Below the pieces are notes generated by a model, which ran no database searches, was not told the origin of the DNA, and worked only from the letters and a program-made list of their open reading frames with translations. This document shows, piece by piece, positions 5,049 through 57,208 of a DNA stretch of 64,000 bases (position 1 is its first letter; every line of letters starts with the position of its first letter). This DNA is from a virus. The position numbers were made by a program, and so were the translations under genes. The stretch covers positions 32,001 to 96,000 of the IMG/VR virus record IMGVR_UViG_3300036845_000721; one strand, 5' to 3'.

Positions 5049-5509
5049 CTTGGCGATGGCACGAGGACATCCGCTGCATGATCTGGCATGGCGAGCCCGG
5101 TGACCCGGACCCCTGGCTGGCGACGGCAGCGGCGCACTGGCACGGCCGGCTTCCCGGGTACCAGCCAGGGTTGGGGATGCCGCCGGGGCCGGAATGGCCG
5201 GAAGTACCGTCGTACTGGCCGGAAAGCGAAGGCATGCCGGACGCCGAGCAGGTGAAATGGCTGCAGTACCGGCTGGCGCTGGAGCAGCAGCGCTGCCGGC
5301 AGTACCAGGCGGACCTGATCCGGATGCAGGACCGGGTGCAGCCGCAGCAGCCTGTGCAGCCGCCCGCGCGGCCGGAACCGGAATCCCTGGCGCAGCGGTT
5401 CCTGCCGCCGCGCTGGCTGGTAACAGCGTGGATGATCCTGCTGCTGCTGACCGGGGAAGCCTTCCTGGCCGTGCTGCTGGGGGCGGCGCTCCGGGCGGTG
5501 GGATCGTGA
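5045..5509 (+). CDS. hypothetical protein with C-terminal transmembrane helix
   Basis: C-terminal WLVTAWMILLLLTGEAFLAVLLGAAL; overlap-coupled to neighbours. Confidence 0.6.
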   Translation: MTWRWHEDIRCMIWHGEPGDPDPWLATAAAHWHGRLPGYQPGLGMPPGPEWPEVPSYWPESEGMPDAEQVKWLQYRLALEQQRCRQYQADLIRMQDRVQPQQPVQPPARPEPESLAQRFLPPRWLVTAWMILLLLTGEAFLAVLLGAALRAVGS

Positions 5510-6356: not shown

Positions 6357-7265
6357 ATGACCGCCGGCACGCCAGCAGGCAACGGCCAGGAGCTGTCCGG
6401 CCAGCATGTGCTCTACCGGCACTGGGCCAAAGACGGCACCCTCCTGTACGCCGGGCGGACCAACAATCCCCCGGCCCGGATGCGCAAGCACCGGTCAGAA
6501 GCTGACTGGTGGGCGTCCGTCTGCTGGACTACTTACGAGAAGTTCCCGTCCCTGGAAGCGCTCAAGGCCGGGGAGGCCTGGGCGATCGAGCACGAAAACC
6601 CGCAAGGGAACATTCAGGGACGGGTGTTCCAGGCTCCCCCGCGCAAGAGCCCGGAGCCGGGCACCGACCCTTATGTCCCGGTAAGAACCCGGGACCTGAG
6701 ACCAGACCTGGAGCTCATCCACCCGCTCTCGCGCGAGTTCTCCGTGTACGGAGGCGGCGACACCGTTCGGCGCGCCCGGGAATGGGCGCTGAACCGCCGG
6801 TACTACCTGCTGGACGGGCTGCCGGCCTGCGCTCACGCCTTCTACCTGATGAGGTGCCCGAACGCCGGCCGCTGCATCCCGCACGCAGACCACACCCAGG
6901 TGTGGGTCCCGGCCCCGGACTTCAGCAGGTTCGAGACCTACAGCGGTGCAGAGCCGCCGTTCATCCTCACGCAGCCGTACCGCGGCAGCCTGCCGGAGGG
7001 CGATGAAGACGACGCACCGGCAGCCGGGCTGCCCGGGCAGGCAATCAGGCTCCCGGCAGAAGTTACCGCTTACGCCGCCGCTCACGGGCTCGGTGCCGAG
7101 ACCTGGATCTCCGACGCCTGGTACTACCCGGAGCACTGCGTACCTGTCCGGCTCACGCCGCACGGAGGCGGCTACGTATCGTTCCCCCTGGAGACGGAGA
7201 CGCTGAGCCTGATGTGCGCCTGGCGGGACGAGTGGCCGGAAGCGGTACCGGAATGGCTCAAGTGA
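6357..7265 (+). CDS. GIY-YIG nuclease-domain protein with C-terminal domain of unknown function
   Basis: VLYRHW...LLYAGRTNNPPARMRKH...EAWAIEHENP matches the GIY-YIG core. Confidence 0.7.
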   Translation: MTAGTPAGNGQELSGQHVLYRHWAKDGTLLYAGRTNNPPARMRKHRSEADWWASVCWTTYEKFPSLEALKAGEAWAIEHENPQGNIQGRVFQAPPRKSPEPGTDPYVPVRTRDLRPDLELIHPLSREFSVYGGGDTVRRAREWALNRRYYLLDGLPACAHAFYLMRCPNAGRCIPHADHTQVWVPAPDFSRFETYSGAEPPFILTQPYRGSLPEGDEDDAPAAGLPGQAIRLPAEVTAYAAAHGLGAETWISDAWYYPEHCVPVRLTPHGGGYVSFPLETETLSLMCAWRDEWPEAVPEWLK

Positions 7266-10200
7266 TGGCTGACCTCATGCCGCCGCCCGTCGCCTGGCTG
7301 TCGGATATCCACCGGGCCTACCTGAACGAGCACGCCGTCACCGACGAGATCATCGCCACTGCCCGGATCCGGTCCGAGGGCGAGGTAATCGTTTTCCCGT
7401 GGCGGGACAGCGACCTGGTCACCGAGCAGCGCCGCGTGTGGCCCGAGCCCGAGGACGGGCTGCCCGAGGGCATGCCGAAATACTGGTGGGAGGCGGGGCA
7501 CTCCCCACACCTGTGGGCTGTCCGGCCCGTTACCGGGCTGCCCGCCAGTGCCCCGGTAATCATCGCCGAGGGCACCAAGCAGTCCCTGGCCGTCGCGTCC
7601 TGGGCGCCCCTGGAGTACGCCGTCTACGGGATGCCCGGATGCGATATCGGGCTGGTATCGATGCTGCAGCGGGCCGGGCTGGACCGGTTCGGCGGCCATC
7701 CGGTGGTCATCATGCTCGATGCCGACGCGGCCGAGAACCTGAACGTGTACGAGGCCGGCGAGAAACTGGCCGAGCTGCTGGATCTGGAAGGCGCCGCGGC
7801 GATCGCGTTCACCCGGCTGCCCGCTCAGGGCAAAGACGGGATCGATGACTTCCTGGGCCTGGTGGAACCGGAAGGCCGCCGGACCGAGGTGCTGGCCAAG
7901 CTGCTGTCCCGGGCCGAGCCGAAACCCGCCGGGCGCAGGCCGGTGCGGCGCCCGGTCAGCGAGGAGCCGCCGGACACGGGCGGGCTGCCCGCGGTCACCG
8001 TGAACAAGAACCGCCGTGAGGTCATCCACGAAATCCTGTGGCATCTCCAGCAGCGGTGGAACGGCACCGAGCTGTTCTGCTACGGAGGGGCGCTCACCCG
8101 GCTGCGCGAGACAGCGACAGAGCCGCTGGAGGAAGGCGCATTCCTGCGCTGGATGGTAGAGGCAGTCTGCCCGGTCAAGTACACCCCGGCCGGCCCGGCC
8201 AGCCCGGCCCGGTATGAGCCCACCTGGCCGGACCAGCAGACGGTCAAGGCCCTGCTGTCCTCCGGCGACGAGTTCGCCCCGCTAACCCGGGTCAGCCGCA
8301 CCCCGTTCATCCGGGCCGACGGCACCGTCTGCGCCAAGAACGGGTACGATCCTGCCAGCCAGACCATGCTGATCACCGGGAACTCCGGAATGGACCAGCT
8401 GGACATCCCGCACGAGCCGACACAGCAGCAGGCCATCACCGCCGCCGGGTACCTGCTGGACGAGTGGCTGGGCGACATGCCGTTCCGGGACCGGGCCAGC
8501 CGGGCCGGGGCGCTCGCCCTGGTGCTCACCCAGTTCATCCGCGGCCTGGTGCCGCTGGCCCCGCTCGCGGTCATCTCCGGACTGCAGCCGGGCGTCGGGA
8601 AGGGGCTGCTGGCCGACTGCGTGCAGCTGATGATCGCCGGAGAGGCCGCGCCGCCGCTGCCCTGGAGCCAGGTAGACGACGAGGAGAACCGAAAGCAGAT
8701 CACCAGTGCCTTCAAGGCCGGCGCTAACCTGGTCTGGTTCGATGAGGCGCACCAGATCGAGTCGCTGGCGCTGTCCCGGGCCATTACCTCGCTGACCTAC
8801 GCCGACCGGATCCTCGGCCTGACCAAGCAGGTCAGCTGGCCCAACCAGGTCACCTGGCTGGCTACCGGAAACCAGGTGGCGGCCAGCTCGGACATGGCCC
8901 GGCGGGCCTACTGGATCGAGCTGTACCCGGACGTGCCCGACCCGGAGAACCGGCCGGAATCCGATTTCAGCCACCCGGACCTGCGCGGCTGGACACTGGA
9001 TGCCCGGCCCCGGCTGATCACCGAAGCGCTGACCGTCATCCGAGCCTGGTACGCGGCCGGCCGGCCGCCGCATTCCCGCGGGCTCCTGATGGGATCGTTC
9101 GAGACCTGGGACAAGATGATGTCCGGCATCCTGGCCTACGCGGGGATAGACGGGTTCCTCGGCAACCTGGCCGCCAAACGGGCCGAGCGCGACGTCACCG
9201 GGGGGTACTGGGCCGAGCACGTTGCCTGGCTGCGCGCCCAGTTCGGCGCCGGGGAGTTCGCCGCCCAGGACGTGAAGATCCGGGCCGCCGGCTCCGGCGG
9301 GGCCTGGGATGCCCCGCCCCGGCTAGAGGACTTGAGCCGGGAAGGGTGGACCCGGGTGCTCGGCCAGGCGTACGCCCGGAATGCCGACCGGTGGTACGGG
9401 CAGTTCCGGCTGCACCGGTCCGGTGAGGGATTCGGGCACTCGGCACGCTGGACGATCCAGCAGCGGGGTGAAGAAACGGCACTCCCGGCTCCAAGAGACA
9501 ACACCCTGCCTGACCTGGGCGGGGGGAACAGGGGGAACGAATCCGGGCCGCCCGCGAACGGGTCGTTCGCTGCCCCAACCGCAAACGAAACCCTGCCTGA
9601 GCTGGGAGGATACGGTAATGGGGGAACAGAAATGCGTTCCCCTGCTACAGAAACCATGCCTGAGCTGGGCGGGCTTCCGGAAAACAGCGGTTTCGGGGGA
9701 ACAGGGGGAACTACTACCCCAGGTGTCCATGTGCGCGCGGGTGCGGGCGCACACGCGCGCGTTACGCGCGAGGGGGATTTCGTTCCCCTTGCTCCCCCTG
9801 TTCCCCCGAACCCCCCTGTTGCCGGAACCGGCCCGGTGCTCGGCTTCGACCTGGAAACCGGCGAGGCCGGGAAGCTGTTCACCTACACCCCGCACGATGA
9901 GACCGGCTACGTCCGGCTCGCCGGGATCACAGGCCCGTCCGGCGCGAACATGATCACCGGGGTACCGCAGCTGCTCGCGATGCTGGGCATGGCGCGGCGG
10001 GCGTACGGGCACAACATCCTCGGCTTCGACGGGCTGGCGCTGGCCCGCTGGGCGGGCGCGGACTGGGACTGGTTCTGCGACCGGGCGGTGGACACCGAGC
10101 TGATCGCCCGGCAGGCGTTCCCGCCCCGGTCCCGGGAGTCCGGCACGTCGGCCGACAAGCTGGGCCTGGACGCGGTGGCGGCGCTGCTCGGGCTGTCCGG

Positions 10201-11605
10201 CAAGACCGACGAGCTGTCCCGGCTGGCCGCTAAGCACGGCGGCTACGACATGATCCCGGCCGACGATCCGGAGTACCTGGCCTACCTCCGCGGCGACCTG
10301 GACGCCACCCGCGGCGTCGCCGGGCAGCTGCTGCGGCACTACGACGAGGACGCCTACCTGCCGCGCGAGCACGAACTGGCCCGGATCGCCGGGCACATGG
10401 CGCTGAACGGGCTGGCGGTCGACATCCCGCTGCTGACCCAGCGGTACGAGGCCGGCGAGCAGCGCAGGCAAGACGCCCTGCAGGCACTGCACGACGGCTG
10501 GGGCCTGCCGCTCGGCCGGGCCGTGATGCGCGGGCGCGGTCACGCCCGGCACGAGGAGACCGAAGGGTTCACCGCGCCGCTGGCCACCGCCGAAGGCCGC
10601 GCCTGGCTGGCCGCCCAGTGGGAGCGGTACCAGGTCCCGGACCCGCCGCTGACCGCGAAGGGACTGCTGGCCATCGGCAGCGACGAGCTCGCGGTCATCG
10701 GCCGCGACCCGGACTGCCCGCCGGACCTGCGGGCGATGCTGGCGCTGATGAACATCGTCACCACCACCCGGTCGGTCTACCAGACCGCGCGGGCGTGGCT
10801 GTGCCCGGACGGCAAGGTGCACCCGAAGATCAGCTTCCGGCAGGCGTCCGGCCGCTGGTCGGTCACCGACCCCGGGCTGACCGTGTTCGGCAAGCACGAG
10901 GGACGGCACGTGGAACGGGACATCTTCACCGCCAGCGAAGGCCGGGTGCTGATGAGTTTCGACCTGGAGCAGGTGGACATGCGGGCGATCGCCGGGCACA
11001 GCCAGGACCCGGCCTACATGGAGCTGTTCAGGCCCGGCCGCGACGCGCACTCCGAGATCGCCGCCCGGGTGTTCGGCGAGGCGCCCCGGGACGCGAAAGG
11101 CCGCCACCCGATGCGCCAGCCCGCGAAAGCCCGGGGCCACGGCTGGAACTACGGGATGGGTCCGGACCGGATGATCCGCGACGGGGTCGACCCGGACATG
11201 GCCTACGGGTTCGACAACGGGATGAAAGCCGCGTTCCCGGTGCTGTGCGACTGGCGCGAGGGCATCCGCGCCATCGCGGCGGCCGGCGGCATCCTGGACA
11301 ACGGGTTCGGCCGCCGGATGCGCGCCGACCCGCGGCACGCGCACACCGTCGCCCCGGCGCTGATGGGCCAAGGGGGAGCCCGCGACATCATGGGCCAGTG
11401 CCTGCTGCAGATCGACCCGGCGCTGCGCCCGTACATGGTGCTGCAGGTGCACGACGAGGTAATCCTGGACGTTCCGGAGGGCGATGCCGGGGAGGCCGCC
11501 GCCGAGGTCCGCCGGGCCATGACCTGGACCTGGCGGGACGTCCCGATCCTGTGCGACCAGGCCGGCCCCGGCCGGTCCTGGGGCGAGCTGTCGGGGGACA
11601 AGTGA
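7262..11605 (+). CDS. fused Toprim primase / P-loop (SF3-like) helicase / family A DNA polymerase with 3'-5' exonuclease (~1447 aa)
   Basis: Toprim IIAEGTKQ, MLDADA, GKDGIDDFL; Walker A GLQPGVGKG, Walker B VWFDE, LATGN; exonuclease FDLETG, GHNILGFD, YLRGD; PolA motif A SFDLEQVDMR, motif B RQPAKARGHGWNYG, motif C LQVHDEV; no internal stop in the ORF track. Confidence 0.9.
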   Translation: MMADLMPPPVAWLSDIHRAYLNEHAVTDEIIATARIRSEGEVIVFPWRDSDLVTEQRRVWPEPEDGLPEGMPKYWWEAGHSPHLWAVRPVTGLPASAPVIIAEGTKQSLAVASWAPLEYAVYGMPGCDIGLVSMLQRAGLDRFGGHPVVIMLDADAAENLNVYEAGEKLAELLDLEGAAAIAFTRLPAQGKDGIDDFLGLVEPEGRRTEVLAKLLSRAEPKPAGRRPVRRPVSEEPPDTGGLPAVTVNKNRREVIHEILWHLQQRWNGTELFCYGGALTRLRETATEPLEEGAFLRWMVEAVCPVKYTPAGPASPARYEPTWPDQQTVKALLSSGDEFAPLTRVSRTPFIRADGTVCAKNGYDPASQTMLITGNSGMDQLDIPHEPTQQQAITAAGYLLDEWLGDMPFRDRASRAGALALVLTQFIRGLVPLAPLAVISGLQPGVGKGLLADCVQLMIAGEAAPPLPWSQVDDEENRKQITSAFKAGANLVWFDEAHQIESLALSRAITSLTYADRILGLTKQVSWPNQVTWLATGNQVAASSDMARRAYWIELYPDVPDPENRPESDFSHPDLRGWTLDARPRLITEALTVIRAWYAAGRPPHSRGLLMGSFETWDKMMSGILAYAGIDGFLGNLAAKRAERDVTGGYWAEHVAWLRAQFGAGEFAAQDVKIRAAGSGGAWDAPPRLEDLSREGWTRVLGQAYARNADRWYGQFRLHRSGEGFGHSARWTIQQRGEETALPAPRDNTLPDLGGGNRGNESGPPANGSFAAPTANETLPELGGYGNGGTEMRSPATETMPELGGLPENSGFGGTGGTTTPGVHVRAGAGAHARVTREGDFVPLAPPVPPNPPVAGTGPVLGFDLETGEAGKLFTYTPHDETGYVRLAGITGPSGANMITGVPQLLAMLGMARRAYGHNILGFDGLALARWAGADWDWFCDRAVDTELIARQAFPPRSRESGTSADKLGLDAVAALLGLSGKTDELSRLAAKHGGYDMIPADDPEYLAYLRGDLDATRGVAGQLLRHYDEDAYLPREHELARIAGHMALNGLAVDIPLLTQRYEAGEQRRQDALQALHDGWGLPLGRAVMRGRGHARHEETEGFTAPLATAEGRAWLAAQWERYQVPDPPLTAKGLLAIGSDELAVIGRDPDCPPDLRAMLALMNIVTTTRSVYQTARAWLCPDGKVHPKISFRQASGRWSVTDPGLTVFGKHEGRHVERDIFTASEGRVLMSFDLEQVDMRAIAGHSQDPAYMELFRPGRDAHSEIAARVFGEAPRDAKGRHPMRQPAKARGHGWNYGMGPDRMIRDGVDPDMAYGFDNGMKAAFPVLCDWREGIRAIAAAGGILDNGFGRRMRADPRHAHTVAPALMGQGGARDIMGQCLLQIDPALRPYMVLQVHDEVILDVPEGDAGEAAAEVRRAMTWTWRDVPILCDQAGPGRSWGELSGDK
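9503..9805. repeat. iteron-like repeats inside the helicase-polymerase linker
   Basis: ACC(C/A)TGCCTGA(C/G)CTGGG at 9503, 9590, 9653; GGGAAC at 9524, 9533, 9622, 9697, 9706; inverted GTTCCC at 9636, 9782, 9800. Confidence 0.55.
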
Positions 11606-30492: not shown

Positions 30493-30537
30493 CGCGTTGT
30501 CCTCCTGTGTTCTCGGGTGCCGAGTGCAGAATTGCAC

Positions 30538-40500: not shown

Positions 40501-43500
40501 GACGGGGCCGCGCTCGCGGCCGGTGCCCAGTGCGGCCCGTCCGGCGTGTCGGTGACGGTGCCCAGGAACGTGCCCGGGTGATGGCCGGAGCTGCCCCCGG
40601 TCATCCAGACCGCGACCCGGTCCCGGCCCTTGTCATCCTCGCCGATGCACACTCTCACGCCGGCGTGCCAGCCGCGCGTGTGCGCCTCGCAGCCGGCCTT
40701 CATCCCGGCCCCGTAGTTCTTGCCGCGCCGGTTGTCGTAGTCGTGATAGAACCTCATGATCGTTCTCCTGATCCTTGGTCGGTCAGTATGATTTTCCGGT
40801 CAGCCGGAATGTTCAGGCGTCCGCGGTCTCCCACAGGTACGCGTCGTACTCGCCGCCCAGGAACTCGCGCAGCTTCCTGGTCTGCTCGCACACGGCGCGG
40901 TACAGGCTTACGGAATCCCCGGTGTCTGTGCCGTACTCGCGTGCCCAGTCCGCGTAGTCGCGGGAGTTGTCCAGGCTGGCCGCGTCGGCGGTCGTGCACG
41001 CCAGCACGTCATAGGCGTCCGGGATGCGCCCGTTGTGACCCGGTCCCATGTAGAACGGCAGCTTGAGGTCGCGCTTGCCGGGCCGGGACAGCGTGAGGTC
41101 CCACCAGTCCCCGTCACGCCGGTCGCTGCCGGCGATGACGGCCGGCGGCCGGTTCCGGCGCTTGGCGGCGGTGACGCCGATGTGGTCCGCGCGGATGCGC
41201 TCGGTGAGCGTTGTCATGGCGTGCCTCCTCAGTGCCGGTGCGTGACGGTGATCGTTGCGGTGCCCTCACCAGGGAAGTCCGGTGAGCCGGGGTCGGCGTC
41301 GCGGGCGTCGCAGCGCTCGCCGATCACCCGCGCGTCCGGTAGCTCCAGCTCGTACTCGCCGCCCATGTCGTAGCGCGGCACGTCCGGCGCTGACGGCGCG
41401 CCGTTCAGCAGGTCTCGTTCGCGCTGGCGGACGTTGATGACGGGATGCTCGCGCCATTCGCCGGCGTCGTAGACGGTGACCGTCATGCCGTTGGACAGCT
41501 CCACGGTCACCGACGGCAGTTCGACGGTGCGCAGTTGCAGTTTCATGATCGTTCTCCTGATCCTGTTCGGTCAGTATGGTTGGGCGGGTGCCGGCGCGCG
41601 GGCCTGGATGCGGTCCGCGCGCCGGCGTAGTCGGGGCTACCAGCCGTTGCCGGCGATGACCAGCTTGGCCTGGACGACTGGGTCCTGGTACGCCTCCACC
41701 GCCGGCCGGTGCACGACCGGCGGCTGCGGCGCAGGGTCCGGACCGTCCAGGACTATGGTGCTCGCGTTCATCTGTCTCCTGATCTGGTGATGCGGTGCCG
41801 GCGGCCGGTCAGCCGCCGGAGGTCACTGTGTGCGTGTAGGTCCGGGTGCCGGCCTTCGACACGGCCCATTTGCGGACGTCCTGCCACCAGCGCGGGTAGC
41901 TGCGCTCGTCCCGGTAGACGTTCTCGGTGTAGTGCGCGCCGGTCTTGCTGCGGCTGGTGATGCGCTCCCACTTCTGGTAGTCGTGGCCGCAGGCGTACTT
42001 GTGCACCCAGGTCTGCCGGACCGTGCCGGCTGACGACACCGAGTAGCTGTAGCTGTTCGTCGTCGTGCACGCGGTCGTGCGCGCGGCGGTCAGCACGGCC
42101 GCTGTAACGTGCGACGGGGCCGGCTGCGAGTGCGCGGGCGGCCCCGACGGCTGCCCGGACAGCAGCGCCATCGTCAGCATGCCGGCCGCTGCGGCGACCG
42201 CCAGCACGGCCAGCGCGAGCAGGACGGCGCGGCGCGGGAACGGTGCTGGCCTGGCGCGGCGGCCGGTGTTGCGGAGCGCGATCGCGTACGAGGGCGATCC
42301 GGTGTGACGGTTTGCGGACATGAATCCTGTCTCCTGATCTGTTGTTGATCTTCCGGTCGGTCGGAAAGTCTCGGGTCAGGCCGGCGTGAGCGCCGTCCAG
42401 GCGGTGAGCTGCATGTTCTCGCGCATCTCGTAGTACCTCGGCTTGCGCGGGTCCGGGTCCTCGTCCCACAGCCGGCGCAGGACTGCGCGCTGCGCGTCGG
42501 TCAGCGTCAGGTCACCGCGCTTGAACACTGACCGGCCGTTGCTGTCCTGCCAGTTCGCGTACGCGTCCCGCACCGGGAGCATCATCCCGCGCCGCTGCGC
42601 GTTGTAATCGGCCCACGCGGCGGCGAAGGCGCCGGCGAACGCGGTCTCGCCGTCGGTCGCGCCGGCCGGCGTGGCGGCGGGCGTGCCGGTGCTGTCCTGG
42701 CTGGCCCAGGCGTAGCCCAGCGCGAGCCACCTGGCCTCATCGGGTGCCATGGCTCAGACCTCCGCCCCGGTCAGCGCGGCCAGCTCGGACAGCGCCGCGT
42801 CCACGGTGATGCCGTGCATGATGGCGCGGGTGAGGATGTCGTACACCTCGTCGGACTCCCAGGCCCGCCCGTAGATCAGCGTGAACGAGTCCGAGATGAG
42901 GTTGACCTGGCCGCGGATGTACTCGGCGTTGGGCTCGCCCGGCTCGGTCAGGTCCCGCGCCGCTTCCAGCACGCGGCGCAGGCTCGCCTGCTCGTGCTCG
43001 CCGTACGGTTTCCGGGCGCGCACCGCTGCGGTCAGCAACGCCAGGGCGTCATGCTCGTGGGCGCGCCCTGCCAGGGCCTCGTCAGCCAGGTGGAGCGCGA
43101 TAGCCAGCGGGATGACGGGAGTCGCGGGCGGCTGGTTAACGGTCACTGGCCTAGACCTCCGCCCCGGTCAGCGCGGCCAGCACGTTGCGGCGGCGCAGGA
43201 TCTCCGGGTCGGTCCCGGCCGGCAGCTCGTCCGTGAGGCCGGCGGTCCGGTAGGCCTTGATCGCCGCCTCCGCCAGCTCCGCGTCCGGTCCGGTCATCGC
43301 CCCGAAGTAGAGCCGGCGGTGCGACTCGTCCGGGATGTAGGTGCCGTCGCCGGGCTCCCCCGCCCACAGCTGGACGATGTCGTTGTAGCCGTGGTAGTCG
43401 CCGGCGGCCATGGACAGGTGCTCGTACATCGCGGCCACGCCCTGCCGGAACTCGGCCAGCTTCGGATCGGAGGCGGCCAGGTACCGGTTCGCCGCCGCGC

Positions 43501-43519
43501 GGATCTCGCTGACTCGCAT
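37545..43519 (-). other. run of short hypothetical genes: 37545-38063, 38067-38465, 38469-38801, 38798-39130, 39143-39709, 39706-40098, 40095-40757, 40813-41217, 41229-41546, 41809-42321, 42376-42750, 42754-43146, 43151-~43519
   Basis: Contiguous ORFs, most with headers; 41809-42321 has a signal-anchor helix. Confidence 0.65.
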
Positions 43520-43585
43520 GGTTTTTCTCATGATCATTTTCTCCTGATCTTCGGTGCGGAGTGCAGGATTGCACTCGGATGTGAA

Positions 43586-43726
43586 CCGGCAGCCGGCCGG
43601 GGAAACCGCACGCACCCGGTCACCCGGGTCCGTTCCATACCCGCCAGCGGCGGGAGCGGCTGCCTTACGCGGGCCTGCGGACGGAACCTGACCGTGCCGC
43701 TCACCCCTGTCCCGGCCGGCTGCCGG
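43586..43726 (-). ncRNA. candidate structured non-coding RNA
   Basis: Perfect 16-bp terminal inverted repeat (43586-43601 / 43711-43726) enclosing three further stems, one with a GUGA (GNRA) tetraloop on the - strand; intergenic. Confidence 0.55.
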
Positions 43727-43732
43727 AGTCTG

Positions 43733-46700
43733 TTACTCGGTCGTCAGCCGGTAGCCGTCCGGCTGGATGGCAGCGAGCCGCCGCCACTCGGCTTCGCCGT
43801 GGACCAGGAAAGCGTCGGTCAGCTCTCCGTCGGTGTCGCGGACGTAAGCCATGGCCGGGTAAGTAGTCGGCACATCGCTCTCGTTGCTGTCGTCGGTGTC
43901 CGGGCGGTCGCAGCTCCAGAAACCCAGCTCCCCGCCGGCGTCCCACGACGATTCACAGCCGGCCAGCTCGCAGTCGGCGCAGACCAGGTCGGTGCCGTCC
44001 GCGCTGATCACCGTCTCCCCGCAGCACGGGCAGTCGTAGTAGCCCGGCTCGCGGAATGGCACCCGGCGGAACACGATCGCCCAGCCGGCCGCTTCCTCGG
44101 AGTCGTCCAGCGTCTCCACCGTGACCGCCGCGTACAGGCCGGGCCGGCGGACGATGTCCTCGGCGAGATGCCCGCCGATGTACTCCGACGCGTGCATGAT
44201 CGCCGGCGCGAAGTTGCCCTGCTGCCCGCTGTAGCCGTCGGTGAACGTTCCCCAGCCCGCGGCCTCGATGCCCGCGACCCACGCGTCATAGTCGGCCTGG
44301 AGGATCTGCCCGTCCGCGTCGGTGCCGATCACCGACTCCGGCGCGTGCACATCCGCCGGCCCGTCGCTCACGCGGCCTCTGGCGTCCACTGAGATCACGT
44401 GATCGAAATCCATCTCGGCGCTGAGCCAGTCAGCGTGACCGATTCCCATGGTCGTTTTTCCCTTCTCGATATTCCGGTTAACCGGAAAGTTCAGGCCAGG
44501 ATGCTGACGCAGTCCAGGCAGGTGATGGCGCGGCGGTGCAGCGCGGCGCGCCCGCCCTCGTCGCTGGATACGCCCGTCGCCCGGCCGCAGACCGGCGGCT
44601 CGCGCCACAGCGGCCGGTCGTCGTGCAGGGTGTCCAGGTCGATGGCGTGCACGGTGCCGTCGTCGTGCTCCACGCCGACGTAGCCGCGCGGCGTGAGCAT
44701 GACGGCTGCGAGCCGGCTCATCCGCTCGCCCTCGGCGTGCAGGTACGCGGCCAGCTCCAGGATGCCGGCGTGGTCGGCCGGCGTGATCCGGGGATCGGCG
44801 GCGCACGCGGCGCACGTCTCTACGGGGTCGGTGTGGAATCCGGGTTCGGGCCTGCTCATGACACGCCTGCCGCGTACAGGCCGGCGCCGTCGGCTTCCAT
44901 GCGCGCGATGTCAGCCTCGTCCGTGCTGGCCGGCTCCGGCTGGAACCAGAACACGACCGCGTCCCGCGACCCGCCGAGGTTGCTTCCGCAGACGTCGCAC
45001 GCGGACCAGGTGAACGTCAGCTGCTCGCACTCGCAGTCGCCGCCACGGTCGGACTCGGTCTCCAGCTCGTGGCCGCGCGCCACGGTCAGCCGGGCGCCGG
45101 CCGGGATCTCCCAGTGCGCCGCCTCCATCGCGTCGGCGTAGCTGCCCGCGAGCACTTCCACCGTGCCCCGGACCATCGACCCGCGCACGCGGTGCGGGAC
45201 CAGGTAGGTCACGGTCCAGTTGGACCGGCAGTCGTGGCCCTCGCGGAACATGCCCAGCGTGACCTCGCAGCCCTCGGTGTAGTGCGCGATCCGCGCCTGC
45301 CACTCGGTTATCTCGGCTGGCGTCCAGTCCGCCGGCGCGTCGCCGTTGGCCAGCAGGAACAGGCAGTCGGTGCAGCACCAGCCGCTGAACGTCTGGTCTC
45401 GGTTCATGGTCATGATCGTTTGTCTCCTGATCGTGGTCGTCAGTGTTCCGGAGTGCAGGATTGCACTCAGCCGGGGTAGGGGTCGCGGAGAACAGCCTGG
45501 ATGTGCGGCGGGAGCAGCCCGATGACGATGTTGGCGGCGTCGGTTCCGGTCAGCCCGGACTCGCCCTCAAGCAGCAGATCCAGTGATGCGCTGTAGCCGG
45601 CGTTGCGCAGCCGCGTTTCGAGAGTGACCGGCTGCCAGTCACCTTGCAGCGTCTCGCCGTCCGGGTTTTCCGCGTACTCGAACCGGGTCAGGTCCACCGC
45701 GTACAGCATGTTGTCGTACTCGGGGCACTCCAGCGCGACGTTCGCGTCCGCGACGTGCTGCTCCGTCAGCTCGCCGAACCATGCCCACAGCTCGCCGTCA
45801 TCGTTGTTGGCCGCCTGCCAGACGTGCTCGGCGCGGGCGAACCAGCGCAGCGGCGGCACCATCGCGTTGGACGTCACCCACGCGATCGGGTCATCGCCCG
45901 ACGTGCGCGCGGCCACGATGATCTGGTCGGCCACGTCCTGCGCGAGACGCCGGACCGTGCCGCGCCCCACGGTGACGGGCAGCTCGATCGCGTCGCCGTA
46001 ACGACCGCCGGGAACGCCTATCGCGCCGTTCCGCGTGGTCGTGTATGCCTCGGTCATGATCGTTCTCCTATTCCGCCTAGCCGCGCGGGTCGCGGTCTAG
46101 CTGGCTGATAATCTCGCGCTCGTCTCGCTCGGCACACTGCCGGCGGGAGATACCCGGATCGCACGTGCACGGCTGGTCCGCGCTGTCCGGCCGGTAGCTG
46201 GGGGTTTGCATGATCGATCCTCCGATCGGTCGGAATGTCAGTGAACGTAGGCACCGCGATCGGTGCAGGTGAACGTGTCGCCGTCGGGCAGCGTCACCGA
46301 ATCGCCCGGCTGCAATGCCGCGTGCCAGGTGCCGGTGATCACGGTGCCGGTATAGACCGGCTGGCTCGCCTGGCAGGTGACCGCCGGCGCGTAGTGGTGC
46401 GTCAGCCGCAGCGCCGCCACTTCGGCCTGGACCAGCAGCGCGAACGCCAGCAGAATCCAGCCGGTTCGCTCCCGCCAGCCCATCAGGCCGCTTCCTTGCG
46501 CCACGCCGCGCGCTCGGCCGCGGACGGGGAGTCCGGCCTGCCAGGCCGGTGTGGTGGCCTGGTCAGGTCGATCTTGGGCTGGTGATCGAACATCGCCTCG
46601 AACAGCGCTTGCGCGGCCAGCGCGCCGGCTGTCGGGGTGTCTTGCTCGCGGGTGGTCATGATCGTGTCTCCTGATCGTGATGCGGAGTGCAGGACTGCAC

Positions 46701-50212: not shown

Positions 50213-50898
50213 GGTTTGGGGGGTTCCAAGTGCAGATTTGCACTTGGCGCGCGGGCCAGCCGGAGTCTGATTCCGTTGCCTACGTCCATAGGTCGCGCGG
50301 TTACGTTAGGCAATCCGCCATACCGCCGCTAGGCGATACCGATTGCAGCCCGTAGCCTGTATGCGACTGTCGCGTATCCATTGGCTGGCCCAATTGCTTA
50401 GGGGACACGCGCGGCGGTTTGCTAATCCGTCCGCATGCCGTGACCTCATATCGCACTACGCGCGATAGCGGAGGATTTCACCAGGTAACCGATAGGGGAC
50501 GACCGGGTCGTGGCAAAGAGGCATGCGCGCATTCCGCACCCTTGCAATGCTCGCCAGTCACGCTAACGGCTTGGTGTCGTCACTCTGGAGTTTTCAAGTT
50601 GCGGTGCCGGCTGGTGGCCGGCTTGCTCTCACCCTCCGGGCGGAGGGCTTGCCCGTAGCCTAATGGCAATTTGGCAATATGGCAACCTGGTAAGCCGAAA
50701 ACAGGCCTTATTTCATGATCAACATGCCCTCTGACCTGGCATTATAACAGGTTGATAACGGTCTTGAGACTAGGGGCAGAATGTCCGATATGTCCGGTTT
50801 AACGAGTGCAGATCTGCACTCGGAGATGCCTTATCGGAGCCATCCTCCGGTTAAGTTTTCGCTGGTCACAGCATCGCGCTTTTACCAGGTAGCCGGCT

Positions 50899-51044
50899 CC
50901 CACGGTCGGAGGTGGCCCACGGTCGGAGGTGGCCCACGGTCGGAGGTGGCCCACGGTCGGAGGTGGCCCACGGTCGGAGGTGGCCCACGGTCGGAGGTGG
51001 CCCACGGTCGGAGGTGGCCCACGGTCGGAGGTGGCCCACGGTCG
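50899..51044. repeat. 17-bp tandem repeat CCCACGGTCGGAGGTGG, 8 full copies plus 10 bp
   Basis: Units start at 50899, 50916 ... 51018, partial at 51035; non-coding region. Confidence 0.95.
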
Positions 51045-55269: not shown

Positions 55270-57208
55270 CGGTCCCGCCGCCCCGGGCGGCCATGTCCGC
55301 TGGCGGCGCCGGCTGCTGATCGGGCTGGCCGTCGCGACCGGCATCGTCATGTTCGCCCGCACGGCCGGGCTCCGGACGGCGGAGATCACCGGAGGCGGTC
55401 TCGCGGTCGCCGGCCTGGTCGGCCTGTACCTGTGGCGCGGCCCGAAGCTGCACAAGCACCTGCGGGGGCTGCGCGGCGGGGGTCACAGCAGGACCGGCAG
55501 CCTCAACTGGCCCGGCCAGCGCGGCAAGGGACTGCCCAGCATCCGGTCGCCGGGGCACAGGCGCTTGGGCGGTTCCCGGGCGGGTATGCGCGCTGGTAGC
55601 CGGCACCGTCCGGCTATGGCTCCGTTCCGCCGCGCGGGCGGTGCCGGCCCCAGAGCAGGGTCACGCCATCGCAGGGGTCTCGGCAGGGTCTTCGGCTCTG
55701 CCGGTGCGCGGCGCCGTCCCGGCGGCCCGTCGCTGTCCGGCCGCCGGGGCGGCACAGGCCGTGGCCTGACGGGCCGGCGCAGCACTGGCCGTAGTCTGAC
55801 GGGCCGGCGCAGCACTGGTCGTGGCCTGACGGGCCGGCGCAGGCTTGCCGGGAGTTCCGGGACGTCCCGCCGGGGTTCCGGGGCAGCTCGCCGGCGTTCC
55901 GCCAGCCGCTTCTCACCGTCTCGCCGGCGATCCGGGGCTTTCCGCGGGTCTCGCCGGGTTTCCGGTGGTTCCCGCGGAGGATCGCGGGGTTCCGGACGGA
56001 CAAGGCCGGGATCGCGCGGTGCCGGATCACGCCGTCGCAGCCTGTTTCACCCCTTCAGCGGGCGCCGTCGCCCCGTCAGCGGCTCGCGCGGTCGCGGCGG
56101 CGCCCGGCCTGCGGGCCGCCGTATCCGCATTCTCGGGCTGTTCAGCCGCCGTCCGGCTGGCAGCAGCGGGCCGCGGGCGCGCCGGTCTCCCGCCCGGCCG
56201 CCCGGCCGCGTGCGCCGGGCCTGGCAGCGGCTGGGCGCCGCCCGTGCTGCGCGCGGTCCCGGCCCGGCCCGCTACGCGTGGTGGCGGCTGCGCGGAAGCC
56301 CCGGGACGCCCGGCAGCCGCGGCTCCCGGCGCCGCGCGCTGCGCAACCGCCGCAAGGCCTGGCGCCGCCGGCTCAAGGCGAACCCGGCGCTTGCCCGGCG
56401 CCGGCCCTGGTACGCGCCATGGCGCATGCAGCCGGGCGGGAAGCCCGCGCTGCGGCACCGGCTCAGCCGGCGGGTCCGCACCTGGCGCCGGCGGCACCGG
56501 CTGTACGCGCCGCGCAACCGGCAGGGCCGCCGGCTCACCTGGCGGGACCGGATCGCGCGCAGGTGGCACATCTGGCGCGGTCACCCGGGCTCCGGCGCCA
56601 TCCTGCTGGGCGGCCGGCCCCGGCTGAGCCGCCGGGTCGCTGCCCGGGCACGCCGGATCGCCAGCCCGCGGCGCTGGCGCTGGCTGCGCAGGCACCGTCA
56701 GGCTCCGCCCCGGCAGATGCCGGCCTGGACCGGCGCGGCCGGGCAGCGGATCAACCACCACCGCCAGTACCGGTGGCTGCGCGGCGGCACTCCGGTCCGG
56801 CCGCAGCCGCAGCCGCAGCCGCGCCGGCAGCGCGGCGCCCAGCCCGCAGGCAACGGCAGCAGCCGCAGTAACGGGTCCGGTCCCGTCCCGGGAGCCGGCC
56901 AGACACGAGGAGGAGCAATGGACACAGGCGCGATGGCAGAGTCGATCCGGGAGCAGGGCAACCACGAGTTTGTCGACCCGCAGGACGTGCACGACACCCT
57001 GACCGGGATGCACGAGATCGTGGCGGCAATGCACGACGCCCTGCAGGTGATGGCCCAGCACCTGGCCGAGTCCGGCGTGCACCCGGCGTACGCCGAGGCG
57101 ACGGCCGAGGCGGCGAATCAGATGACCGGGATCGCCGACGGCCTGCAGTCCGTCACCCAGGGCGGCGTGATGCAGGGTCCGGGCGGCGGCGGCGGAGGCA
57201 GCGGCTGA
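55247..57208 (+). CDS. membrane-anchored, extremely Arg/Gly-rich protein; in-frame internal start at 56918 gives a 96-aa acidic helical protein
   Basis: Two N-terminal hydrophobic helices; ~500 aa of R/G/S/P; GAGGAGGAGCA-ATG at 56918 in the same frame; 30-bp x3 repeat at 55757-55846. Confidence 0.55.
   Translation: MTASTGPSGPAAPGGHVRWRRRLLIGLAVATGIVMFARTAGLRTAEITGGGLAVAGLVGLYLWRGPKLHKHLRGLRGGGHSRTGSLNWPGQRGKGLPSIRSPGHRRLGGSRAGMRAGSRHRPAMAPFRRAGGAGPRAGSRHRRGLGRVFGSAGARRRPGGPSLSGRRGGTGRGLTGRRSTGRSLTGRRSTGRGLTGRRRLAGSSGTSRRGSGAARRRSASRFSPSRRRSGAFRGSRRVSGGSRGGSRGSGRTRPGSRGAGSRRRSLFHPFSGRRRPVSGSRGRGGARPAGRRIRILGLFSRRPAGSSGPRARRSPARPPGRVRRAWQRLGAARAARGPGPARYAWWRLRGSPGTPGSRGSRRRALRNRRKAWRRRLKANPALARRRPWYAPWRMQPGGKPALRHRLSRRVRTWRRRHRLYAPRNRQGRRLTWRDRIARRWHIWRGHPGSGAILLGGRPRLSRRVAARARRIASPRRWRWLRRHRQAPPRQMPAWTGAAGQRINHHRQYRWLRGGTPVRPQPQPQPRRQRGAQPAGNGSSRSNGSGPVPGAGQTRGGAMDTGAMAESIREQGNHEFVDPQDVHDTLTGMHEIVAAMHDALQVMAQHLAESGVHPAYAEATAEAANQMTGIADGLQSVTQGGVMQGPGGGGGGSG

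Follow-up and report, generated by a model that had tools for sequence, protein, structure and literature searches.

An insert of 134 nt, which lies between two early genes of a phage genome, is real and unusual: it is discrete, non-coding and strongly structured, its predicted structure is non-random, it is present at some homologous junctions and absent from others, and it is far more conserved than the sequences that flank it. The best explanation, to which we assign a probability of roughly 0.45, is that the element is a recently spread, MITE-like palindromic insertion which is co-transcribed with its neighbors and acts as an intercistronic RNA hairpin, i.e., in processing, in message stability or as a barrier to read-through.

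The DNA analyzed here (the window, 64,000 nucleotides) comprises bases 32001-96000 of a linear IMG/VR record of 131,444 bp with a CheckV completeness of 62%, and its GC content is ~70%. The stretch, or part of it, was detected in five soil DNA metagenome runs, with no RNA run listed, and relatives of genes near the element are found on metagenome contigs of 198 kb and 236 kb; the source is most likely a large (~200 kb) actinobacterial soil phage. From ~14 kb to 50 kb every gene points leftward, forming an early-type polycistronic block in which the gene junctions are stereotyped: a stop codon is followed by a palindrome of one of two families, by GATCAGGAGA and by a start codon. Between positions 30513 and 50830 these palindromes comprise eleven of the form GAGTGCA-N4-TGCACTC (operator B) and eight of the TTCCGG-N4-CCGGAA type, and the strand-switch region carries a perfect tandem array of a 17-bp unit, repeated ~8.6 times, at 50899-51044.

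The element is found on the minus strand between gene A (43733..44449, 238 aa, with a Cys-rich, Zn-ribbon-like center) and gene B (43151..43537, 126-128 aa), both delineated by GC3 frame analysis; the start of gene B is likely the second ATG, at 43531, which matches the 126-aa database call. Both are ORFans of unknown function, for which PHROGs, Pfam and the ESM Atlas were uninformative; scans of IMG/VR with protein patterns of either gene gave no match, and neither gene is found in the closest IMG/VR relative (G001). The stop codon of gene A (TAA, 43733-43735) adjoins a junction motif, CAGACTCCGGC (43722-43732), and comparison with two related loci, referred to below as L010 and L011, identifies this motif, within the stretch 43722..43735 (minus strand), as the place of insertion. 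On the other side, as described in an earlier reading of the DNA made without database searches (the sequence-only reading), the element is directly followed by a family B operator, i.e., one of the eleven operator-B palindromes (43559..43576), which starts 9 nt 3' of the closing stem P1 and precedes the ribosome-binding site (RBS) of gene B, the start-associated GATCAGGAGA at 43540..43549 on the minus strand. The gap between genes A and B is 195 nt, compared to 40-55 nt (palindrome and RBS) for the neighboring gaps, such that it corresponds to a usual junction with ~140 nt extra. A separate observation in this neighborhood concerns the ~38-nt 3' gene ends at 42750-42787 and 43147-43184, which are 92% identical and encode ...LAALTGAEV*; they belong to unrelated neighboring genes, and the nine residues are found identically in a non-homologous gene of L010 (~5315-5341). 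These shared ends could be recombination boundaries in cassette shuffling.

Alignment of the window, L011 and L010 defines the insertion proper as the 134 nt at 43588..43721 (minus strand; the boundary is ambiguous by 1 nt), with 11-bp terminal inverted repeats, AGCCGGCCGGG / CCCGGCCGGCT. Because the pre-existing flanks (CCGGC on the left and GG on the right) lengthen the 11-bp terminal pairing, the stem reaches 16 bp, and the hairpin with these flanking bases measures 141 nt. The perfect 16-bp GC inverted repeat noted in the sequence-only reading was re-found at 43586-43601 / 43711-43726, enclosing 109 nt. In the minus-strand RNA it forms the closing stem P1, with a 5' arm CCGGCAGCCGGCCGGG (43711..43726; pair probabilities 0.92-1.0), the outer 5 nt of which belong to the pre-existing junction motif, and a 3' arm CCCGGCCGGCUGCCGG (43586..43601). 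In the predicted fold this perfect stem is stacked on inner helices that form two arms, all of them taken from the minimum free energy (MFE) structure of the minus strand. In arm A (43671..43706) a 4-bp helix, GGGU/GCCC including one U-G pair, leads through an internal loop to an 8-bp hairpin that has a bulged C and a 7-nt loop, UCAGGUU. The base helix of arm B (43604..43661) has 6 bp, AGCCGC/GCGGUU, one of them G-U, and bears hairpin B1 (CCCGCC-GCU-GGCGGG, 43640..43654) and hairpin B2 (ACG-G-ACCCGG-GUGA-CCGGGU-G-CGU, 43610..43633). Pair probabilities are mostly 0.92 or higher across the predicted fold, in which about one third of the positions are unpaired.

The two 6-bp hairpins proposed earlier, at 43640-43654 and, with the GUGA loop on the minus strand, at 43614-43629, are both found in this MFE structure with pair probabilities of at least 0.98. 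The inner 7-bp stem proposed together with them (43696-43702 / 43654-43660) does exist as a complementarity; when it is forced, the fold has an energy of -89.9 kcal/mol compared to -99.9 kcal/mol, and its probability in the ensemble is about zero. A suggested pseudoknot was reduced to two non-nested complementarities of 4-5 bp, GUUCC/GGAAC and GUCC/GGAC. In a fold from a tool that does not score pseudoknots, these reuse bases from two helices of high probability, and they are thus an alternative pairing and not a demonstrable pseudoknot. The likeness to SRP helix 8 had no support in Rfam, and a mimic of that helix was rejected. The same applies to two other motif assignments: for an 11-nt tetraloop receptor, UAUGG is present and the partner strand misfits, and for a CRISPR-repeat-like unit in hairpin B1 there is no CRISPR-DR match, the likeness being generic only.

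The sense (minus-strand) RNA folds with a computed energy of -100.9 kcal/mol (z -4.09), and none of 200 shuffled sequences was equally stable. For the plus strand the values are -91.4 kcal/mol and z -2.83, i.e., 9.5 kcal/mol worse, because three G-U pairs become A-C mismatches. The interior alone is moderately structured, with z -2.1 in the sense and -1.3 in the antisense direction. High-GC DNA forms many stems and this interior is only modestly better than shuffles, from which one might argue for a chance inverted repeat in GC-rich intergenic DNA. However, the record contains two perfect inverted repeats of at least 16 bp with a loop of at most 200 nt, compared to a mean of 0.025 per record in 40 block-wise dinucleotide shuffles (~80 times commoner), the whole element has a z of -4.1, and it recurs in at least three other phage contexts; chance is in effect refuted by its recurrence in L011 and in soil contigs.

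The GC3 periodicity collapses across the element, and other copies differ from it by indels whose lengths are not divisible by three, 1 and 4 nt in L011 and -1 and +1 nt in the variant from soil run X4. These two properties also led us to reject a read-through of the stop codon that would fuse genes A and B, even though the frame is open.

Three metagenome contexts were reached through homologues of gene A, and the comparison is based on two full-length copies that were read together with several contig fragments. The copy in L011 (1216-1355) has the same architecture, a computed energy of -98.4 kcal/mol and a z of -4.26. It is identical to that of the window in 139 of 145 alignment columns, with no substitution in a stem. 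The only differences are the loss of the bulged C in arm A, which leaves a perfect 8-bp stem, and a B2 (GUGA) hairpin that is symmetrically shorter by 2 bp and has a new loop, UCCC; hairpin B1 is unchanged. Over the same two loci, DNA identity is 79.5% in the core of gene A and 87.5% in the operator/RBS region. From the 7 differences in 56 nt of this non-coding flank, ~17 substitutions would be expected in 135 nt, whereas none is found outside the remodeled hairpin. The L011 element follows a truncated gene A homologue that lacks the C-terminal 46 residues, and it precedes a gene of 205 aa that is unrelated to gene B. Gene A itself is a mosaic when compared with L010 (4001-4914) and L011 (628-1209): its first ~192 aa match a gene of 190-193 aa in the relatives, while the ~46 aa at its end correspond to the C-terminus of another gene, of 110 aa, that follows in L010, a part that is missing from L011.

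At the homologous junction of L010 the element is precisely missing: ...GAGTAACAGGCTCCGGC is followed by GGTTTTACACAATCCGA (GGTT..CACA..TCCGA), where the window has ...GAGTAACAGACTCCGGC, the 134 nt and then GGTTCACATCCGA. Excision of the block from CTCCGGC[...]GGTTCAC yields CTCCGGCGGTT, as in L010, where the right-flank homology is short (~13 of 17 nt). Because it is missing from this site, the element is dispensable. The junction motif is common to the empty L010 site, to L011 and to a second place in the window, where the exact 11-mer CAGACTCCGGC is found on the minus strand at ~50259-50269, 13 nt upstream of an operator-B palindrome (50226-50247) and without the element; this site may be an unoccupied target or junction motif.

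Contigs from the soil runs (X1-X4) were compared with positions 43151-44449 of the window. X2 contains an identical copy (rec14), while that in X4 (rec29) differs by a 1-nt deletion in the GUGA loop of hairpin B2, a 1-nt insertion in an unpaired junction and two substitutions. In X1 (rec3) and X3 (rec19) the 5' part of the element is preceded by a different sequence from 43735 or 43731 outward. Conversely, X2 (rec13) and X3 (rec18) contain the operator-B/RBS stretch with 0-1 mismatch and another sequence in place of the element, in rec13 with the stop codon of another gene directly before ACATCC. The Logan contigs of all four runs break within or at the edges of the element, at 43604-43612, 43685-43699 and 43731-43735, which fits with several variants or contexts that co-exist in the same soils. 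Taken together, these data show a discrete module that is separable from both flanks. The four indel events are all located such that the fold is spared, i.e., in loops, bulges or junctions, or as a symmetric shortening of a hairpin, which weakly supports maintenance of the hairpin itself.

The identity between copies covers loops and linkers, no compensatory pair is seen and the flanks have diverged, which argues for recent common descent of the copies. Long-term selection on structure lets stems drift and covary. Near-identical copies in diverged surroundings, together with the exact absence from L010, favor a recent insertion module over a long-conserved functional RNA. An analysis of covariation in the homologues, as proposed in the sequence-only reading, found 0 compensatory pairs and is uninformative, given how little the copies differ.

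We regard as possible but unlikely a dedicated functional RNA that strong purifying selection maintains and that some phages carry as an accessory, whether as a cis-regulatory element in the 5'-untranslated region of gene B, as a processing element or ribozyme, or as a protein-binding decoy. The compact architecture of the element, with a closing stem and a multi-way junction, would suit such a role, as would the better folding of the sense strand, seen also in the interior, and the persistence of the fold through all four indel events; furthermore, all nucleotides outside one hairpin are identical while the adjoining DNA differs by 12-20%. On the other hand, identity in loops and linkers together with an absence of compensatory changes is what recent descent predicts, the element can be dispensed with, as at the L010 site, and a P1 of 16 bp, all of them GC, greatly exceeds the switching helices of riboswitches in strength. 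In addition, the RBS of gene B is not sequestered, being located 40 nt further on and beyond another palindrome. No family was found at or above threshold in the Rfam search suggested earlier: at permissive thresholds, with both 2.5 kb and 191 nt as queries, Rfam 15 gave sul1 as the best match with 20.1 bits, compared to a cut-off of 36.2 bits, and all others with at most 14 bits, which leaves only chance matches below threshold; the families covered include riboswitches, ribozymes, SRP, Y RNA, CRISPR-DR and omega/HEARO RNAs. The earlier proposal of an undescribed ncRNA is retained in part: the element is discrete, non-coding and structured, lacks an Rfam family and recurs in related phages, but there is no sign of a ribozyme, of a decoy or of a free-standing ncRNA. 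For these specific forms (ribozyme, decoy or cis-regulator) the positive support is confined to the stability of the predicted fold.

A further long-stem element bears on this question. It is located at 9692-9810 on the plus strand and has a perfect 18-bp closing stem (TTCGGGGGAACAGGGGGA and its complement) around an 83-nt interior of three hairpins, with a computed energy of -83.4 kcal/mol and a z of -6.17. Within the open frame 7214-11605 it occupies part of a GC3-poor region (9400-9820), just before the exonuclease motif VLGFDLET of the DNA polymerase. The closest IMG/VR relative (L022 ~870-985; polymerase 67% identical) has at the same position a repeat of different sequence, GGGACGGAGGGAATGGAGG / CCTCCATCCCTCCCGTC, with an interior of GC hairpins. 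We consider this second element to be a candidate conserved cis-element and, since its position and shape are kept in the relative in spite of a different stem sequence, it may be the better candidate for a selected structure; the same constancy suggests that such folds matter in these phages, which would be a point in favor of a functional RNA also at the gene A-gene B junction.

Searches for further copies were performed at several levels. No match was obtained with blastn against the INPHARED phages and the PLSDB plasmids, and exact-anchor scans of IMG/VR, of 185,579 GTDB species genomes and of JGI metagenome contigs, using both P1 arms or interior anchors, found no copy; the single match from these scans (L013) was due to chance and, upon inspection, unrelated. 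A covariance model of the element (R1) was applied to the window, to nine loci, to the whole record and to 35 related IMG/VR records and recovered the two known copies and no others; the second long-stem element scores 23.9 bits with this model, on architecture alone. Neither BLAST nor the covariance model revealed a second copy in the 131-kb record (62% complete). Within the same record no Y1 transposase (Y1_Tnp) or TnpB domain and no reverse transcriptase (RVT_1) domain was found. The only gene that ARAGORN detected was a tRNA-Ser at 55432-55526, with no tRNA or tmRNA at the element.

These results are relevant to the class to which the element might be assigned. It has the terminal inverted repeats of a MITE (11 bp in the 134-nt indel and 16 bp with flanking bases), and it is present or absent at homologous sites: L010 is empty, the copies in L011, X1 and X3 are in different contexts, and in X2 and X3 the right flank is found with no element next to it. 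A target-site duplication was not seen: comparison of the filled sites (window, L011) with the empty one (L010) leaves an ambiguity of at most 1 nt (0-1 nt) and no direct repeat, and in the record (131 kb, 62% complete) there is one copy where a MITE would have several. The element thus resembles a MITE in form, and membership of the class is not claimed for an element that falls short of the full definition. Because there is no duplication, one copy, no Y1 transposase or TnpB in the 62% complete record, and no copy in GTDB genomes or IMG/VR by exact anchors or in the 35 related IMG/VR records by covariance model, transposition is at most a putative mechanism. Recombination between junction modules, homologous or illegitimate, is as plausible as transposition, because all known copies share the junction motif and the orientation.

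Several known types of element were considered and rejected. A REP/BIME unit, which would be a palindrome of 20-40 nt in many copies with an associated RAYT, is excluded by the single copy, the length of 141 nt, the lack of a Y1 transposase and the absence of GTDB copies by anchor patterns. A retron ncRNA (msr-msd) would have flanking a1/a2 inverted repeats and an adjacent reverse transcriptase gene; an inverted repeat is found here, but the record has no RVT_1, and gene B is an ORFan of 126-128 aa. A clt site for TraB is speculative, as the TraB module is located 11 kb away.

The location of the element within the transcription unit raises the possibility of termination. As the sequence-only reading had pointed out, the stem is not followed by a U-tract, and the consensus scan found no terminator-like site; an intrinsic (Rho-independent) terminator was rejected on these grounds, the stem being followed by UUCACAUCC and enclosing a 109-nt loop. 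The element is neither an ordinary U-tract terminator nor a multicopy REP. In Streptomyces, long GC inverted repeats without T-runs terminate transcription, and a U-tract-less ("I-shaped") terminator or attenuator of this high-GC actinobacterial kind, placed between genes A and B with no mobility implied, would be compatible with a very stable GC stem that starts 7 nt after the stop codon and with the palindromes that all operon junctions carry. At another junction (41796-41821, minus strand) a plain 8-bp GC hairpin, CCGGCGGC-loop-GCCGCCGG, is found directly after the stop codon; it opens with the CTCCGGCGG motif, as does the empty L010 site, and is followed by the start sequence GATCAGGAG. 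In contrast to terminator hairpins, however, the "loop" of the present element has its own helices, the scan for consensus terminators was negative at this site, and a terminator would not explain near-identity across diverged phages or the pattern of presence and absence. For these reasons we consider this explanation to be improbable.

A role at the DNA level is less probable still, whether in recombination (as an attC-like hairpin at the 3' end of a gene cassette), as a cruciform, in the binding of a protein or as a signal for single-strand initiation. The perfect inverted repeat is built of nested CCGG/GCCGGC palindromes, its placement right behind a stop codon, among gene units that resemble cassettes, is reminiscent of attC, and the flanking genes differ between phages. 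Yet core sites (RYYYAAC ... GTTRRRY) were not seen upon inspection; the stem is perfect, with ends that read CAGACU-CCGG... / ...CCGG-UUCACA, and an integron attC was rejected for these reasons. No integrase or rolling-circle Rep gene was seen nearby, and an iteron-like candidate origin is located elsewhere, at 50.9 kb. Moreover, the sense RNA folds better by ~9 kcal/mol owing to G-U pairs, an asymmetry that is unexpected for a duplex or cruciform.

That the sense RNA folds better and that the copies share a constant sense orientation fits with a role, or with tolerance, at the RNA level. In the reading that we prefer, i.e., a recently spread insertion that acts as an intercistronic hairpin, the element would be a small, dispensable, non-coding module in a stereotyped junction composed of a stop codon, the CAGRCTCCGGC motif, an operator palindrome and an RBS. 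It would have spread or been exchanged recently within a narrow group of related phages, independently of both flanks. We infer transcription, an effect at the RNA level and a way of movement: located in sense orientation inside an operon, the element would be transcribed within the mRNA, in which the 16-bp GC stem is predicted to close the three-hairpin interior with ~-100 kcal/mol. The effect would be that of an intercistronic barrier, i.e., an RNase III-type processing site and/or a protective hairpin at the 3' end of the gene A message, and possibly also a partial block of transcriptional or translational read-through into gene B. The length of P1 counts against a processing site, as its 16 bp are fewer than the ~22 bp of a classical RNase III substrate. 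A far more speculative scenario, to which we attach very little weight, would be a new kind of self-spreading structured module of jumbo actinophages, the fold of which (as RNA or single-stranded DNA) is recognized by a phage or host enzyme for copying into the CCGGC^GG junction motif, or else an exchanged anti-defense decoy RNA; in either case it would be architecturally related to the second long-stem element.

Known systems offer partial parallels. MPME1 and MPME2 are ultra-small mobile inserts of mycobacteriophages (~440 bp) that have 11-bp inverted repeats and encode a small putative transposase. The present element shares with them the 11-bp inverted repeats and sites that are occupied or empty in otherwise similar actinophage genomes, but it comprises 134 nt and has no open reading frame. 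The early RNase III sites of phage T7 are single hairpins of ~60 nt with an internal loop; they are conserved core features, and their cleavage leaves protective 3' hairpins. In both cases stable intercistronic hairpins are located just 3' of stop codons in a polycistronic early phage transcript; the element described here differs in being multi-branched and accessory, and its processing is only putative. Integron attC sites are imperfect inverted repeats of 57-141 nt that are found right after the stop codon of a cassette and in which structure outweighs sequence, a likeness that ends at the R'/R'' core motifs, which this element lacks, and at its perfect stem, since attC folding is defined by extrahelical bases, of which this stem has none.

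A review is available of small mobile repeats that lie between genes and carry structure motifs (PMC2229807). ERIC, RU-1/2/3 and bacterial MITEs are, like the present element, small, non-autonomous and palindromic; they occupy intergenic positions, fold as RNA and can affect mRNA stability (PMC2229807, PMC3184786), but they are multicopy chromosomal repeats, usually with target duplications, whereas this element has no copies in the GTDB anchor scans. The closest functional analogue is the Correia element (CREE/NEMIS) of Neisseria, which is a non-coding intergenic insert of 100-160 bp with inverted repeats at its ends and with sites that are occupied in some strains and empty in others (PMC2649163). 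Correia elements are co-transcribed, and their RNA hairpin is bound by RNase III and cut or protected, with altered expression of neighboring genes (PMC2649163); by analogy, an action of RNase III on the present element is putative. CREE have 26-bp terminal repeats, a TA duplication, an IHF site and hundreds of copies per genome. In the element in the window, by comparison, the repeats measure 11 bp (16 bp with flanks) and no duplication is seen; there is a single copy per record, with an unrelated sequence and in a phage host.

If the preferred reading is correct, the element would be one of the few documented MITE-like, structured and non-coding inserts to move between phage genomes rather than bacterial chromosomes, and the "stop-palindrome-RBS" junctions of large soil actinophages would be places at which modules are inserted or swapped. 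An intercistronic hairpin of ~-100 kcal/mol, as computed here, would probably affect how the genes on both sides are expressed, and it may therefore represent a natural portable part that uncouples genes in high-GC hosts. If, instead, the element is a selected ncRNA, it would represent a new class of phage RNA.
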